From IMG/VR virus record IMGVR_UViG_2703718868_000001: 6,855 nucleotides of DNA; one strand, given 5' to 3'. Every line of letters begins with the position of its first letter. Within the stretch, counting starts at the first letter, position 1. The DNA is from a virus. Taxonomy: Duplodnaviria; Heunggongvirae; Uroviricota; Caudoviricetes. Shown in pieces: positions 2,687 through 6,855 of the stretch. The notes under the pieces were generated by a model that saw only the letters and a program-made list of their open reading frames with translations, searched no databases and had not been told where the DNA came from. The position numbers were made by a program, and so were the translations under genes.

Positions 2687-3040
2687 ATGACCACTATTAC
2701 CAAAGAGCGACTGCAATGGCTGGCTAACATTTCTGGCCGCGATGACATTGACGATATAGACGGCGGTGAAATTCGTGAGCTGGCGCTTATCGCGCTGGCA
2801 TCGCTGGAAGCGAAGCCTGTAGCTTCATGTATTATTGAAGATGGGGGCATGTGTGTTGACGGGTTCGGTGAGTATGTTGGTCACTCGCTGCCTGATGGAA
2901 CGCACCAGCTTTACGCCGCCCCGCCAGTGCCTAGTAAGTTGCCGCGTGAATACAGAAACGGTTGGCCTCTTGCATATAGTGATTATGCTGAAGGCTGGAA
3001 CGACTGCCGCGAAGCCATGCTTCAGGGAGATAAATCATGA
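2687..3040 (+). CDS. hypothetical phage protein (117 aa)
   Basis: ATG at 2687 one nt after the upstream stop (TGAgATG), AAGGAG at 2675-2680. Product contains LYAAPP and GWNDCREAML motifs that I vaguely associate with lambdoid accessory proteins, but I cannot name the family. Confidence 0.6.
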   Translation: MTTITKERLQWLANISGRDDIDDIDGGEIRELALIALASLEAKPVASCIIEDGGMCVDGFGEYVGHSLPDGTHQLYAAPPVPSKLPREYRNGWPLAYSDYAEGWNDCREAMLQGDKS

Positions 3041-3390
3041 TTAATCGTATCAAGCTGGAGCACATCCTCGAATATGCCAGGCAGCAGAAGCATACTGGTC
3101 AGCATTGTAAAATTCCACCAGGGGATATGGTTGAAATCATGGAGATTGCCATGCGCAAGGCTGGCAATTCTCCGGTAACTCCGGATGGTTGGATAAGCTG
3201 TAGTGAGCGAATGCCGCCAGTTGGTGTTGATGTACTACTGTTTGTGTCCAGCACGGGTGAACAGTTTACAGGTTTTAACCTGGATAATACGGGTGACTTC
3301 CAGTATGCGCAGTGTTTCGGTGCGCCTATCGTGTGTGAAGCCACACACTGGATGCCGCTACCAGAACCGCCGAAGGAGGTGCGCCAATGA
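3037..3390 (+). CDS. DUF551-like phage protein
   Basis: ATG at 3037 overlaps the upstream stop (ATGA), GGGAGA at 3025-3030. C-terminal motif GWISCSERMPP...THWMPLPEPPK matches what I recall of DUF551 proteins (from memory). Stop TGA 3388-3390. Confidence 0.6.
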   Translation: MINRIKLEHILEYARQQKHTGQHCKIPPGDMVEIMEIAMRKAGNSPVTPDGWISCSERMPPVGVDVLLFVSSTGEQFTGFNLDNTGDFQYAQCFGAPIVCEATHWMPLPEPPKEVRQ

Positions 3391-3470
3391 GCTGGCCTGA
3401 GGCCTTCTCAAATGTTGGTATTGCAATGGCGGTAGCATTGGTTGTGTATTCGATTTGCCGCTGGGGATAA
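3387..3470 (+). CDS. 27-aa hydrophobic micro-protein (MSWPEAFSNVGIAMAVALVVYSICRWG), putative single-pass membrane peptide
   Basis: ATG at 3387 overlaps the DUF551 stop (ATGA) with AAGGAGG at 3373-3379 (7-nt spacer); stop TAA 3468-3470 sits just before the intrinsic terminator. Too short for the ORF track; the call rests on RBS quality, coupling and a ~20-residue hydrophobic core. Confidence 0.45.
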   Translation: MSWPEAFSNVGIAMAVALVVYSICRWG

Positions 3471-3471
3471 C

Positions 3472-3502
3472 AAAAACCCCGGATTGATGGTCCGGGGTTT
3501 TT
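3472..3502. terminator. rho-independent terminator, probably bidirectional
   Basis: Perfect 7-bp stem CCCCGGA (3477-3483) / TCCGGGG (3491-3497), 7-nt loop, A5 run upstream (3472-3476) and T5 run downstream (3498-3502). Confidence 0.75.
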
Positions 3503-3660
3503 GAAGGAAACAAAACAGAAACAACAATTGCTGTTACCTGTTGTTACCATGGCAAGTAAACGTATCTCAGGCGAGCGCATTGCGCCGTTCTGACGCACAT
3601 AAGGTAGAGTAGATTGCAGAAGCTGGCAATAAAAAGTTGGTGGAAAGTCTGATGCAGATG

Positions 3661-3686
3661 CGAAAAGATAGCCCCGAAAACGGGGC
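3661..3686 (-). terminator. putative intrinsic terminator for the minus-strand gene
   Basis: Hairpin GCCCCG-AAAA-CGGGGC at 3671-3686 lies 5 nt downstream (minus sense) of the 3692-3694 stop and is followed on the minus strand by UAUCUUUUCG. Confidence 0.55.
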
Positions 3687-3691
3687 CGGAT

Positions 3692-3973
3692 TTACTGAGC
3701 ACCAATAATCCTGAAGATGTAATCCTTGAAGATGAGAGCCAGAGCGGCAGCAACAATAAACCACTGGAGTCGATCAAACTTGGTTTCCAGCTTGTCCAGG
3801 CGCTTATCAACCGATATTAGCTGGTTTTGCAAAGAATTAAAGCGACCATCAATCTCACGACGCAGGTTATCAACGCTTTCCTGTGTTGCCAGGTGTTGCA
3901 TGTTCTGCTGGCGATGGAGTAAAGCATTCAACACATCACTGGTGCTGAACTCAATTTTTTTGTCATCACTCAT
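3692..3973 (-). CDS. 93-aa coiled-coil protein with C-terminal transmembrane anchor (XhlA-like architecture; function unknown)
   Basis: ATG on the minus strand (plus 3971-3973) preceded by AGGAGG (complement of 3979-3984, 5-nt spacer); stop TAA (3692-3694). Product has heptad-like region NLRREIDGRFNSLQNQLISVDKRLDKLETKFDRL then hydrophobic tail WFIVAAALALIFKDYIFRIIG. It is the only convincing minus-strand gene in the window and has its own terminator. Confidence 0.7.
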   Translation of the reverse strand: MSDDKKIEFSTSDVLNALLHRQQNMQHLATQESVDNLRREIDGRFNSLQNQLISVDKRLDKLETKFDRLQWFIVAAALALIFKDYIFRIIGAQ

Positions 3974-4023
3974 GTTGGCCTCCTGTATGGGGAATCGTGG
4001 TACAGGAAAAACCTGTTAAGTAA

Positions 4024-4052
4024 ATAGTAAAGTTAATCGCTTCACTCATCAA
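4024..4052 (-). promoter_or_regulatory. candidate sigma70 promoter for the minus-strand gene (TTGATG-17-TACTAT)
   Basis: On the minus strand, -35 TTGATG (plus 4047-4052) and -10 TACTAT (plus 4024-4029) with a 17-nt spacer, ~50 nt upstream of the ATG. Hexamer matching by eye only. Confidence 0.3.
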
Positions 4053-4058
4053 GTGAGT
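4044..4058. promoter_or_regulatory. inverted repeat ACTCA-tcaag-TGAGT, possible operator
   Basis: 5-bp perfect inverted repeat with a 5-nt spacer (extendable with mismatches), overlapping the candidate -35 of the minus-strand promoter and 15-29 bp upstream of the candidate plus-strand -35. Confidence 0.3.
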
Positions 4059-4072
4059 AAGCACAGAAGCGG

Positions 4073-4102
4073 TTGACGACAACAGAAATCAGAGACAATA
4101 TT
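4073..4102 (+). promoter_or_regulatory. candidate sigma70 promoter for the downstream plus-strand operon (TTGACG-18-AATATT)
   Basis: -35 TTGACG at 4073-4078 and -10 AATATT at 4097-4102; needed in principle because the upstream operon ends at the 3472-3502 terminator. Hexamer matching by eye only. Confidence 0.3.
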
Positions 4103-4154
4103 GCCGCACGCCAGCCTGAACAACTGGCACCTGCTGCGTCAGCAGAGAAAACTG

Positions 4155-4433
4155 ATGGCGCACGATACCAGATTTTACAATTCGGATAACTCTGCCGCCC
4201 CTGCCAGCAGACACGGGCGGCGTTCTCATGCATTCAAATCTGACTGGTTCCGGCATGACCCATGCACTGAAGAACAGGCCGAATGGCTGATTCAGTGTTA
4301 CCGCAGACGTGGTTACGAGTTTCAGAAAGCTCTCAGTCTTGACCGTCGCCACTGGATAATCTCTGTCAGGCTACCTTATTCCGAACGCCCACCGCGTCCG
4401 TCCCGAACATTCCAGCAGCGCATCTGGAGGTAA
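4155..4433 (+). CDS. small basic hypothetical protein (92 aa); positional equivalent of rem upstream of ydfU in the K-12 Qin prophage
   Basis: ORF-track frame 4101-4433 begins with TTG at 4101 inside the putative promoter; first ATG at 4155 with weak SD GAGAAA. Arg/His-rich, several rare codons. Stop TAA 4431-4433, 1 nt before the next gene. Identity with Rem not verified. Confidence 0.45.
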   Translation: MAHDTRFYNSDNSAAPASRHGRRSHAFKSDWFRHDPCTEEQAEWLIQCYRRRGYEFQKALSLDRRHWIISVRLPYSERPPRPSRTFQQRIWR

Positions 4434-4434
4434 C

Positions 4435-5484
4435 GTGCGGGTATTACTTCGACCTGTTCTGGTACCGGAACTCGGGATGGTGCTCCTAAAGCCGGGCCGT
4501 GAATCAATGTCAGCATTCCATAACGGCAGAATATTGGTGGAACCGGAACCGAAAAACATGCGCGGTCTGCCGTCCGGAGTCGTTCCTGCCGTTCGACAGC
4601 CGCTGGCAGAGGATAAAACATTACTGCCATTTTTCAGCAACGAACGGGTGATTCGTGCTGCGGGTGGCGCTGGTGCACTGTCTGACTGGTTATTACGTCA
4701 CGTGAAATCCTGCCAGTGGTCACATGGCGATTATCATCACAGCGAAACTGTCATACATCGTTACGGTTCCGGCGCGATGGTGTTGTGCTGGCACTGCGAC
4801 AACCAGCTGCGCGACCAGACATCAGAATCACTCGATCAACTTGCTCAGCAGAATCTGGTTGCCTGGATGACTGACGTTATCCGTCACGCAATAAGCGGCA
4901 TGCAGGAGAGGGAGTTATCGCTGGCCGAATTATCCTGGTGGGCGGCCTGCAATCAGGTGGTGGATGCACTACCTGAGGCAGTAGCGCGTCGTTCGCTGGG
5001 ATTACCGGCGGAAAAAATCCGCTCCGTATACCGTGAGAGTGACATCGTACCGGGAGAACAGACAGCCATCAGCATACTGAAGCAGCGCACAAAAAATATT
5101 GCGCTGCCACTTCACGTCCACCAGCAACAAAATCCACCACAGAAAAAAACGGTTGTCAGTATCGCCGTTGATCCGGAGTCTCCTGAATCGTTCATGAGGC
5201 GGCCTAAACGTCGCCGTTGGGTTAATGAGAAATACACGCGCTGGGTAAAGACACAGCCGTGTGCGTGTTGTGGTAAGCCTGCTGACGATCCGCATCACCT
5301 GATTGGTCATGGTCAGGGGGGAATGGGGACAAAGGCCCACGATATTTTCACGCTACCGTTGTGCCGGGAGCACCACAACGAACTTCATGCAGACCCGCTG
5401 GAGTTTGAGAAAAAGTACGGCTCTCAGATTGAGTTAATTTTTCGTTTTCTTGATCACGCCTTTGCGACTGGCGTGCTCGGGTAA
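4435..5484 (+). CDS. DUF968-family protein with HNH-like Cys/His motifs (YdfU-like)
   Basis: GTG at 4435 with GGAGG at 4426-4430; 349 aa, the length I recall for E. coli K-12 YdfU. C-terminal motif CACCGKPADDPHHLIGHGQGG...LCREHHNELH is the DUF968/HNH-like signature; a second Cys/His cluster (CQWSHGDYHH...CWHCDNQ) lies near residue 95. Confidence 0.8.
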   Translation: MRVLLRPVLVPELGMVLLKPGRESMSAFHNGRILVEPEPKNMRGLPSGVVPAVRQPLAEDKTLLPFFSNERVIRAAGGAGALSDWLLRHVKSCQWSHGDYHHSETVIHRYGSGAMVLCWHCDNQLRDQTSESLDQLAQQNLVAWMTDVIRHAISGMQERELSLAELSWWAACNQVVDALPEAVARRSLGLPAEKIRSVYRESDIVPGEQTAISILKQRTKNIALPLHVHQQQNPPQKKTVVSIAVDPESPESFMRRPKRRRWVNEKYTRWVKTQPCACCGKPADDPHHLIGHGQGGMGTKAHDIFTLPLCREHHNELHADPLEFEKKYGSQIELIFRFLDHAFATGVLG

Positions 5485-5496
5485 AAGAGGTGACTG

Positions 5497-5856
5497 ATGC
5501 TCATAGATTTGGTTTTACCTTACCCGCCGACGGTGAACACTTACTGGCGACGCCGTGGCAGCACATATTTTGTCTCAAAAGCCGGGGAGCGTTATCGCCG
5601 GGCAGTGGCGCTTATTGTTCGCCAGCAGCGACTGAAATTAAGCCTGTCCGGACGGCTGGCAATAAAAATTATTGCAGAACCACCGGATAAGCGCCGCCGT
5701 GACCTGGACAATATTCTGAAAGCGCCGCTGGATGCGCTGACGCATGCGGGAGTGCTTATTGATGACGAGCAGTTTGATGAAATCAATATTGTACGTGGTC
5801 AGCTTGTTCCTGGTGGTCGGTTGGGTGTGAAGATTTACAAAATTGAGAGTGAGTGA
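5497..5856 (+). CDS. rusA: crossover junction endodeoxyribonuclease RusA (Holliday junction resolvase)
   Basis: ATG at 5497 with AAGAGG 5485-5490. Product aligns by eye with E. coli RusA: LPYPPTVNTYWR vs LPWPPSNNRYYR; PDKRRRDLDNILKAPLDALTHAG vs [30 protein letters not shown] vs KGGRLEL. 119 aa. Confidence 0.9.
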   Translation: MLIDLVLPYPPTVNTYWRRRGSTYFVSKAGERYRRAVALIVRQQRLKLSLSGRLAIKIIAEPPDKRRRDLDNILKAPLDALTHAGVLIDDEQFDEINIVRGQLVPGGRLGVKIYKIESE

Positions 5857-5864
5857 GCGTAAAT

Positions 5865-6395
5865 ATGATATATCCGGAAATTACAGGCAAAAGCGGCGAA
5901 CATTTACGCCTGAACACGCTGGAAGCAGTCTGGATCCAGGGGAAATTACGGATGTGGGGGCGGTGGTCGTATATCGGTGGGGGTAAATCCGGAAATATGT
6001 TTAACCGGTTACTGGTTTCGAAAAAGCTGACGAAAACAGCAGTTAATGAGGTTTTACGCAGAATGAAGAAATCCGGGCTGGATAAACCGGAACTTGAGGC
6101 ATTTTTTCGGGATATGACCAGAGGGAAGCAGAAGAGCTGGTTGTCACATTGTACAGACACAGAGGCGTTGATTATTGATCGCGTTATCAGTGAGGTGCTT
6201 GGGGAATATCCCGGGCTAATCAATATTCTCCGGCAAAGGTACGAAGGACGGGGAATGAGTAAGAGAAAAATGGCAGAATGTTTAAATCGTACTCACCCGG
6301 AATGGTGTTTCAGCACATGTGAGAAACGTATTGCAGGTTGGTTAGCCGTGGCTGAACACATGCTTTATGTACCTATGCACGATTCATTTCGATAA
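5865..6395 (+). CDS. late-gene antiterminator Q, QuuD (DLP12)-type, with an N-terminal extension
   Basis: Immediately downstream of rusA (the canonical nin-region position) and upstream of a strong intrinsic terminator. Several segments align by eye with my recollection of QuuD: LRMWGRWSY vs LERWGAWAA; CTDTEALII vs CDDDAMII; RIAGWLAVAEHML vs KAEGIIEGMLMAL. Start at ATG 5865; GTG 5853 overlapping the rusA stop is an alternative. Stop TAA 6393-6395. Confidence 0.65.
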   Translation: MIYPEITGKSGEHLRLNTLEAVWIQGKLRMWGRWSYIGGGKSGNMFNRLLVSKKLTKTAVNEVLRRMKKSGLDKPELEAFFRDMTRGKQKSWLSHCTDTEALIIDRVISEVLGEYPGLINILRQRYEGRGMSKRKMAECLNRTHPEWCFSTCEKRIAGWLAVAEHMLYVPMHDSFR

Positions 6396-6420
6396 AAAAA
6401 GCTTGCTTTTTTACGCAGAA

Positions 6421-6454
6421 ACAGCTTGAATTCCTGTAAGCTTCGCAAAGCTGT
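6421..6454 (+). promoter_or_regulatory. 7-bp inverted repeat (ACAGCTT ... AAGCTGT) with 20-nt spacer in the post-Q leader; candidate late-promoter / Q-utilisation element or RNA stem
   Basis: ACAGCTT at 6421-6427 is the exact reverse complement of AAGCTGT at 6448-6454; the spacer itself contains palindromes GAATTC and AAGCTT. It lies between the Q stop and the 6491-6514 terminator, where lambdoid phages carry pR' and qut. No convincing -35/-10 pair was found by eye. Confidence 0.3.
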
Positions 6455-6490
6455 ATCGCGAGGCGAAATGCAAGTTTTTTCGCACAAGGA

Positions 6491-6514
6491 AGCCACCGGA
6501 AGGTGGTTTTTTTT
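6491..6514 (+). terminator. rho-independent terminator (tR'-like)
   Basis: Stem CCACC (6493-6497) / GGTGG (6502-6506) with GGAA loop, extendable by G-U pairs, followed by T8 (6507-6514). Confidence 0.7.
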
Positions 6515-6637
6515 GTGTCCGTAATATACAGCAGCGCAATAAATTCGCTGGTGGTTATTAATACCGTTCTTTCAGCTTGCTGGCTTTTTCGACAAGAGTT
6601 ATTGGTGTGTCACGTTAACCGGAAAAAGGAAAAAGAC

Positions 6638-6835
6638 ATGCTGAAACAGCAGGATATGACCGAAACCGCCAGGGCAGTGTTTAATGAATTAAGCGTCACC
6701 GAACCGGCGACAGTCGGGGAGATTGCACAGAATACGTACCTTTCACGCGAACGCTGCCAGCTAATACTGACCCAGCTTGTTATGGCGGGTCTGGCAGACT
6801 ATCAGTTCGGTTGTTACAGACGCCTTCTGTCCTGA
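6638..6835 (+). CDS. small (65 aa) putative winged-helix DNA-binding protein (FaeA/PapI-like pattern), hypothetical
   Basis: ATG at 6638 with AAGGA at 6626-6630 (7-nt spacer); ORF-track frame 6503-6835 contains it. Product MLKQQDMTETARAVFNELSVTEPATVGEIAQNTYLSRERCQLILTQLVMAGLADYQFG has an xxEIAxxxxxxxxxxxxxLxxLxxAG pattern like small wHTH regulators. Stop TGA 6833-6835. Confidence 0.5.
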   Translation: MLKQQDMTETARAVFNELSVTEPATVGEIAQNTYLSRERCQLILTQLVMAGLADYQFGCYRRLLS

Positions 6836-6846
6836 AGGCTTTTTTA
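6822..6846 (+). terminator. rho-independent terminator after the small wHTH gene
   Basis: Stem GCCTTC (6822-6827) / GAAGGC (6834-6839) with 6-nt loop containing the stop codon, followed by TTTTTT (6840-6845). Confidence 0.65.
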
Positions 6847-6855
6847 TTTGTGGTA

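Follow-up and report, generated by a model that had tools for sequence, protein, structure and literature searches.

What is the small gene that faces the wrong way in the early region of a lambdoid prophage, and why is it there? The question is raised by a stretch of 6,855 nt from a Caudoviricetes virus (IMG/VR record IMGVR_UViG_2703718868_000001), referred to as the window, in which all positions given below are numbered. On its minus strand, positions 3692–3973 encode a protein of 93 amino acids (aa). The list of open reading frames (ORFs) and the annotated closest genome confirm what an initial annotation had stated, that this gene is alone on its strand; the remaining annotated genes across the span of the window are on the plus strand. 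Here we report that the gene belongs to a small protein family which, as judged by our database searches, is previously undescribed, has no Pfam or NCBIfam model and is narrower than DUF1640. Taking structural and evolutionary description together, we consider it likely that the family is a head-less or head-swapped branch of the DUF1640/CCDC90-like (MCUR1) superfamily, lying outside PF07798 as that model is defined. The gene sits at 3471–4071 in what is, from comparison with related prophages, a self-contained accessory cassette ('moron') in a recombination-prone slot of the early region. A role in mobile-element conflict (exclusion) or establishment is put forward tentatively. Blending the description with this more doubtful role, we give the overall explanation a probability of about 0.5.

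The 93-aa ORF is a genuine gene under strong purifying selection. Among three Escherichia coli lineages, its dN/dS ranges from 0.056 to 0.075 at a dS of 0.25–0.7. An antisense ORF on the plus strand (3726–4019) was ruled out, since both selection and cross-genus conservation track the minus-strand frame. A large protein database contains 117 homologues, distributed over Escherichia, Salmonella, Photorhabdus, Serratia symbiotica, Erwinia tracheiphila and Vibrio. Among 1.8 billion representatives searched exhaustively, just 11 reach E<=1e-10. Scanning one genome per species (185,579 species) found 21 loci, and the family gene has no match in 50,697 deposited phage records. Against Pfam, NCBIfam and PADLOC, the window protein has no match beyond coiled-coil noise, and its PHROG matches are marginal. 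The Pfam matches of longer family members are typical coiled-coil noise as well.

Along the minus strand, the coding sequence is divided from its N-terminus into the following segments:

3692–3973, minus strand: the whole coding sequence of the 93-aa protein, stop codon included, supported by the ORF list, dN/dS and cross-genus homologues.
3893–3973, minus strand: codons 1–27, the conserved N-terminal 'head' KKIEFSTSDVLNALLH..QH, in which K6–H20 and H27 are at least 90% conserved.
3875–3892, minus strand: codons 28–33, L-A-T-Q-E-S, a candidate beta-layer capping a trimeric coiled coil.
3767–3874, minus strand: codons 34–69, the coiled-coil stalk, recognised by its heptad register, helical in the structural model and variable in length.
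3695–3766, minus strand: codons 70–93, the conserved tail QWFIVAAALALIFKDYIFRIIGAQ, a membrane anchor predicted from hydropathy and a module that also occurs in proteins with a DUF1640 head.

The head is specific to the family, with the consensus KKIEFSxSDVLNALLH..QH, and contains no signal peptide. Immediately behind it, A29, T30, Q31 and E32 are invariant across 95 sequences. In the stalk, from V34 to L69, 10 of the 12 a/d positions are hydrophobic, while stalk length and repeat type vary freely. Homologues carry insertions of 7-aa (RFEQVDK) or 18-aa repeats, other E. coli lineages have a 54-nt in-frame insertion relative to the window allele, and proteins of the family range from 88 to 173 aa, the window allele being among the shortest. 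We notice that six E. coli alleles (P0001, P0010, P0014, P0031, P0043 and P0044) have a mosaic stalk between a near-identical head and tail; the repeat types RFNSSQDNVDNLRRE, RLDKMEQETERRFNKLE and TKEGIDTIRRE are swapped among them, and the copy numbers also differ. Another variant is the allele of strain C8 (L015, 4995–5327; likewise PapM-36-2, P0008), in which the first 12 residues are recoded through a 1-nt indel, MTTKKLSSAPADVLNALLH... replacing MSDDKKIEFSTSDVLNALLH..., without interruption of the reading frame. Perhaps the protein can do without its very N-terminus; alternatively, this may be an allele in decay.

The tail, which reads KFDRLQWFIVAAALALIFKDYIF in the family alignments, is predicted to be a C-terminal anchor. 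The coiled coil followed by a single C-terminal hydrophobic helix, already proposed in the initial annotation, is borne out by the heptads and by a top 19-residue Kyte-Doolittle mean of 1.93 (residues 72–90). We accept this anchor with a caveat for the window allele, where two features speak against it. The hydrophobic core runs uninterrupted for only 12 residues (FIVAAALALIF) ahead of K83-D84, and a simple sum over 19 residues on the Hessa scale gives an unfavourable +4.5 kcal/mol, so it is not certain whether this allele spans the membrane or associates with its surface. In the Vibrio members, the core extends to 17–18 residues. The AlphaFold monomer model of the protein is one helix, covering residues 11–92, with a pLDDT of 70.8.

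The link to DUF1640 is seen at the tail. Among the distant representatives are P0120, P0207, P0209 and P0212, in which a textbook DUF1640 head, FDTLKFV..L..AG...QAEA.SDAV.ESHE..DVATKRDLDDLRKD, is joined to the same tail module as in our family, so that RFDKLExKFDRLQWFIVAAAL.LIFK is literally common to the family and to proteins with the canonical head. P0209 scores 35.0 bits with PF07798, above its gathering threshold of 33.5 bits, and P0207 and P0120 remain under it. P0120 retrieves family members at E-values of 1e-16 to 1e-23, through the end of the stalk and the tail. The best PHROG match of the window protein is phrog_17872 (E 0.012), the same family that canonical DUF1640 proteins match at 1e-18 to 1e-22, and P0014 and P0053 match a second DUF1640-type PHROG, phrog_6701, at 7e-5 and 6.5e-11. 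We also built a hidden Markov model (HMM) from ten canonical DUF1640 proteins without the shared tail and compared it against reversed decoys. The median score of the family was 13.9 bits, compared with 13.4 bits for the best reversed decoy and a decoy median of 7.2, and the family ATQ falls on the ATK of the model in 90 of 116 members.

In DUF1640 membrane proteins, a beta-layer with the motif [aliphatic]-A-T-K-[polar]-[DE] begins the stalk (Hartmann et al., 2016; PMC4786415). The segment L28-A-T-Q-E-S33 fits this motif at 4 of 6 positions and lies at the equivalent place; the monomer model continues as a helix there. Besides the tail module, the DUF1640/CCDC90-like proteins (PF07798; MCUR1 and CCDC90B; phrog_17872 and phrog_6701) have in common with the family a small size, an N-terminal part that is helical, a coiled-coil stalk opening with an [aliphatic]-A-T-x-polar motif, and a single C-terminal hydrophobic anchor. 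Those bacterial DUF1640 members that we met in our loci or in the literature likewise occur on prophages and small plasmids. On the other hand, the family of the window protein has no head helix FDTLKFV..LE.AG....QA and begins 13 positions into the canonical model, its motif is ATQE rather than the ATK[RD] of DUF1640, and the tail of most canonical members is a different one, LTIKLG..A.G..TAI.K.

Several comparisons weigh against placing the family in this superfamily. With PF07798 itself, the window protein has no match at E<=10, and this model is outside the top 25 Pfam families among the 30 family members scanned. A full profile-profile comparison with the ten canonical DUF1640 proteins detected a generic coiled coil only, at 89% probability. 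A head-only DUF1640 HMM gave the family a median of 0.6 bits, lower than the 3.2 bits of the reversed decoys, and in a head-only hhalign comparison LATQESVDNLRREI was placed in register with VATKRDLDDLKKTL (L-A-T-Q-E-S versus V-A-T-K-R-D), though at only P=0.03. Searches of solved structures with the family profile and with P0120 found trimeric viral fusion coiled coils and similar noise, and neither MCUR1 nor CCDC90B. Nor does any of the papers that we found assign a function to a bacterial DUF1640-like protein.

The same layout also recalls XhlA, to which the initial annotation had likened the protein. According to this alternative, the product would be an XhlA-like lysis accessory or a membrane-damaging protein: as an oligomer in the inner membrane, it would assist, time or imitate the action of a holin, or it would be toxic when induced. 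XhlA (PF10779; PHROG 1193; known from the PBSX-type lysis cassette of Bacillus) matches in size and layout, with about 90 aa, an N-terminal coiled coil and a C-terminal hydrophobic or transmembrane helix, and some family members are weakly similar to it. PHROG 1193, labelled 'hemolysin', is matched by the window protein at E 0.031, by P0053 at 9e-6 and by P0022 at 1e-4; XhlA is the top Pfam match of the Vibrio-type protein P0110 (25.5 bits, E 1.5e-5), and one relative is labelled 'Haemolysin XhlA' in UniRef. However, P0110 stays under the 34.7-bit cut-off, and the window protein has no match to Pfam XhlA at E<=10. The XhlA model has 67 positions and covers only the C-terminal stalk and the tail, leaving the family head and ATQE without a counterpart. 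Moreover, the gene is in the early region and on the opposite strand, far from the lysis cassette; in L001, the prophage of E. coli 04-00955, the holin is about 7.6 kb and the lysozyme about 9 kb downstream. We consider this alternative quite improbable, the link to DUF1640/CCDC90-like proteins being better supported, and a lysis role seems less likely than one in mobile-element conflict.

Where else does the gene occur? Of 50 loci retrieved, 49 carry the gene, and clustering of the ORFs up to 3 kb away from it revealed three classes of context with no neighbour common to them. In the Photorhabdus class (15 loci, about a dozen species), the gene lies directly downstream of icd on the same strand. 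The E. coli lambdoid prophage class comprises 12 loci. In the Vibrio class (8–9 loci on MOBC plasmids), the gene adjoins, on the same strand, those for an ArdC-like metallopeptidase and ArdA, near topoisomerase III and MobC. Besides these classes, the gene accompanies an integrase fragment and HicB in Erwinia, is carried on P22-like and linear-plasmid-like prophages in Salmonella and a relative, and occupies three chromosomal sites in an uncultured 'Yersinia' genome. Because no neighbour is common to the three classes, we conclude that the gene works alone and moves alone. That homologues are found in anti-restriction islands of plasmids and next to icd, and in no case next to a holin or an endolysin, is a further point against an XhlA-like lysis protein, and the stable chromosomal carriage across Photorhabdus species speaks against a strongly toxic product.

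Some of these loci deserve separate mention. In two Salmonella enterica prophages (L020, 6001–6671; L021, 6001–6659), a canonical DUF1640 (PF07798) gene is convergent with the family gene, next to AntA-like genes in the accessory region, and the 3' ends of the pair overlap by 4 nt. It is possible that the two products form a hetero-oligomer, by analogy with MCUR1–CCDC90B. A paired DUF1640 partner as a general rule was ruled out, as it is present in only these two of the 49 loci. In Photorhabdus tasmaniensis and P. temperata (L041 and L042; 5001–5546), the tblastn match is in two pieces about 180 nt apart, which suggests that the repeat stalk is very long or divergent there, or else that the gene is disrupted. 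In metagenome-assembled genomes of the uncultured 'Yersinia', divergent copies (L044 and L045) lie near genes that resemble core housekeeping genes (a Kef-like transporter; lgt/thyA-like), and a further copy (L047) has flavodoxin- and Fur-like ORFs 1.4–1.9 kb away; the copies in L044 and L047 belong to one genome. These neighbours were identified by eye, and inspection by eye recognised no mobile-element genes within 2.6 kb of the copies in L044, L045 and L047.

The chromosomal loci raise the alternative that the protein is a neutral or host-beneficial envelope scaffold, a generic coiled coil tethered to the membrane that would organise a membrane complex of the host, as proposed for MCUR1/CCDC90B, and that mobile elements are mere carriers of it. 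The roles of mitochondrial MCUR1 and CCDC90B are still debated. Eukaryotic DUF1640 relatives are called scaffold factors in two sources (PMC7519068; bioRxiv 10.1101/2025.10.14.682030). The conservation immediately downstream of icd in at least 12 Photorhabdus species and the three copies near housekeeping genes in the 'Yersinia' genome fit such a scaffold. In E. coli, however, the gene is rare and its distribution patchy, and there the gene is always inside the prophage cargo slot. The linkage to anti-restriction genes on Vibrio plasmids also argues against a passive carrier, and the hypervariable stalk is more typical of conflict or accessory genes. We regard a neutral or beneficial scaffold as unlikely.

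We then turn to the cassette in the window. From left to right, the features that bound and surround the gene are:

3471–3503, no strand assigned: a perfect 13-nt inverted repeat, CAAAAACCCCGGA / TCCGGGGTTTTTG, with a 7-nt loop, which marks the left edge of the cassette.
3504–3669, no strand assigned: a 166-nt spacer between two hairpins, kept with the gene in two of three E. coli lineages (including RM11911) and with hokD in its place in C8.
3670–3687, minus strand: an intrinsic-terminator-like hairpin, GGCCCCG-TTTT-CGGGGCT, followed by ATCTTTTCGC, 4 nt past the stop codon.
3979–3984, minus strand: the Shine-Dalgarno sequence AGGAGG, 5 nt 5' of the ATG and unchanged in three E. coli lineages.
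4024–4052, minus strand: a candidate sigma-70 promoter read from the sequence, TTGATG (4047–4052), 17 nt, TACTAT (4024–4029).
4032–4077, no strand assigned: an imperfect inverted repeat, GTTAATCGCTTC / GAAGCGGTTGAC, with arms at 4032–4043 and 4066–4077 that are complementary at 10 of 12 positions and 22 nt apart.
4073–4102, plus strand: a promoter-like site of the rem-like gene, TTGACG, 18 nt, AATATT, which is divergent and is the first feature of the shared backbone.

The slot is located between a DUF551 gene and the block of rem-like, DUF968, RusA and Q genes. All the E. coli copies examined, in complete genomes, drafts and viral contigs, are divergent from the rem-like/DUF968/RusA block, whichever type of Q follows. 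The extent of the exchanged unit is given by a prophage that carries ParDE at this place (L003, strain UTME-9). Its homology covers 2926–3470 and 4072–6855 of the window with ParDE in between, and because it stops at 3470 and resumes at 4072, the replaceable unit is 3471–4071, which ParDE exactly replaces. The unit is therefore larger than the 3661–4058 delimited earlier. In strain C8 (prophage L015), the homology also stops at 3470; hokD stands in place of 3471–3697, and the family gene follows. The repeat at 3471–3503, flanked by runs of A5 and T5, is the exact breakpoint for the swaps of ParDE, hokD and family-gene cassettes. It looks like a bidirectional terminator, which would probably end transcription of the upstream plus-strand genes together with any read-through on the minus strand.

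The idea of a unit inserted against the early operon as phage cargo is upheld by the clean replacement with ParDE, by the terminator of the gene and by a lower G+C content (45.1% in 3471–4071 vs 51.2% and 50.4% in the flanks). We also compared the locus across related prophages, and the result agrees with the variable cargo hotspot that had been suspected. ParDE in UTME-9 and hokD in C8 are joined by the relBE-hokD of the K-12 prophage Qin, which the initial annotation had placed upstream of rem-ydfU and which we verified in the K-12 sequence; the order there is relB-relE-hokD-rem-ydfU-ydfT, with relBE-hokD directly upstream of rem. In PPompW prophages, Paa is annotated within the aligned early regions. 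The family gene itself is present in 6 of 5,426 complete E. coli genomes. Positions 3402–4450 of the window are 100% identical to E. coli 04-00955 (L001) and the window as a whole only 92%, so the window is a mosaic whose prophage backbone differs from that in 04-00955. The opposite-strand genes ydfV and flxA beside relBE in Qin (L051, 5398–6238) were considered as counterparts of the gene and rejected, having no similarity to the 93-aa protein.

With the other cargo of the slot, RelBE-HokD in Qin, ParDE and HokD, the cassette shares the insertion point between nin-like genes and rem-ydfU, a presumably autonomous transcription of the unit, the lower G+C content and the clean replacement. It differs in encoding a single structural membrane protein without a toxin-antitoxin partner, and no toxin, antitoxin or defence model is matched. 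This neighbourhood of toxins raises another alternative, that the gene is a type I-like addiction-module toxin, a membrane-active protein restrained by an RNA that is either antisense or adjacent. The slot that it has in common with hokD, relBE and parDE would then be explained. Consistent with this, a Hok/Gef gene lies within 3 kb of a homologue on a Vibrio plasmid, and the role of the conserved 166-nt spacer between the two hairpins is unassigned. However, the spacer is missing in the C8 lineage, where the gene is kept, and it contains no convincing ORF and no Rfam family at threshold; at a permissive threshold, Rfam gave sub-threshold matches only, and those were on the 3471–3503 hairpin. 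The protein, with 93 aa (up to 173 in the family) and 70 hydrophilic residues, also contrasts with type I toxins of fewer than 60 aa. A stalk length that varies freely at a very low dN/dS sets it apart from Hok-like peptides, and no partner gene or flank is conserved over the three classes of context. An addiction toxin is, in our view, very unlikely.

The signals of the gene fit a unit that may be expressed on its own. The strong ribosome-binding site and the hairpin terminator named in the initial annotation are both there. The hairpin at 3670–3687 has 7 pairs, 6 of them G-C, is followed by a T-rich stretch and is kept in RM11911. A terminator scan of the region found 2 terminator-like sites against 1.5 expected by chance, which alone is weak evidence; the terminator is convincing because the hairpin is placed 4 nt after the stop codon. 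The proposed promoter is present as described, and both of its hexamers are invariant in three E. coli lineages. Its match to the consensus is 8 of 12 positions, and the promoter scan (threshold 9/12) called no promoter on the minus strand, which counts against transcription from this site. The upstream region 3974–4071 is 93–96% identical among the three lineages, compared with 87–94% for the coding regions.

A palindrome overlapping this promoter had also been pointed out. It proves to be just TCACT (4042–4046) / AGTGA (4052–4056) and is broken in RM11911, and what is conserved instead is the larger repeat at 4032–4077. This repeat is nearly invariant in the three lineages, and flanks the -35 hexamer on both sides. 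It extends to the right-hand boundary of the cassette and shares bases with TTGACG, the plus-strand element of the rem-like gene. From its position, it could be an operator, perhaps common to the two divergent promoters. A small hairpin, CAGG-AAAAA-CCTG on the plus strand at 4003–4016, lies within the predicted 5' untranslated region of the minus-strand gene and is invariant in the three lineages as well.

What might the protein do? We speculate that the promoter of the gene would drive transcription separately from the early operon of the phage, and so probably in the lysogen. The product, lacking a signal peptide, would insert its hydrophobic C-terminal tail into the inner membrane and keep its N-terminus in the cytoplasm. 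The invariant A-T-Q-E would form a beta-layer capping a parallel, probably trimeric, coiled coil; trimer formation is suggested by the motif and by analogy with the literature on the DUF1640 family. The 27-residue head would thereby be held at a set distance from the membrane, about 5 nm in the short allele of the window, where it could dock a partner. The outcome might be, for example, that incoming DNA is excluded at the membrane or that a factor of the host or of a rival is interfered with. We infer the topology, trimer state, timing of expression and function in this scheme from the features described above.

We tentatively favour a part in mobile-element conflict or establishment, because the gene travels alone among prophages, plasmid anti-restriction islands and chromosomes, and because the slots it uses otherwise hold toxin-antitoxin modules and its stalk is hypervariable. 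Small inner-membrane proteins of superinfection or entry exclusion include HK97 gp15, P22 SieA, T4 Imm and plasmid TraS/Eex. The family resembles them in setting alone, as a small membrane protein that is borne on mobile elements, is apparently self-expressed and occurs on prophages as well as transferable plasmids; sequence similarity to them is absent. Other results count against the proposed role. Abortive-infection and superinfection-exclusion genes had been suggested as the kind of cargo to expect here, and a profile search against known abortive-infection or defence families found no match. With PADLOC, the window protein has no match at E<=10, and its relatives show only coiled-coil noise (E>=2e-4). 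The chromosomal fixation in Photorhabdus hints at a housekeeping-type benefit, which fits a pure phage-conflict role poorly. A still bolder proposal, which we hold to be rather improbable, is that the family represents a new class of exclusion or establishment factors common to prophages and transferable plasmids, trimeric stalks tethered to the membrane and facing the cytoplasm. The conserved head would intercept incoming DNA, or else a membrane machine of the host or of a rival, and the repeat-variable stalk would set the reach.

Our comparison documents a hairpin-bounded cargo-exchange slot of Qin-like prophages to the base pair. The family found in it, which can be regarded as a minimal DUF1640-like form, has a clear signature, with an invariant ATQE, a repeat-variable stalk and a conserved tail, and it occurs in three sharply different genetic settings. 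Should the gene prove to have no phenotype, it would be one more uncharacterised moron. With 93 aa and no partner gene, the family is a compact test case for what membrane-tethered stalks do. If the bolder proposal of a new class of exclusion or establishment factors is true, it would be the first function for any bacterial member of the DUF1640/MCUR1 superfamily.

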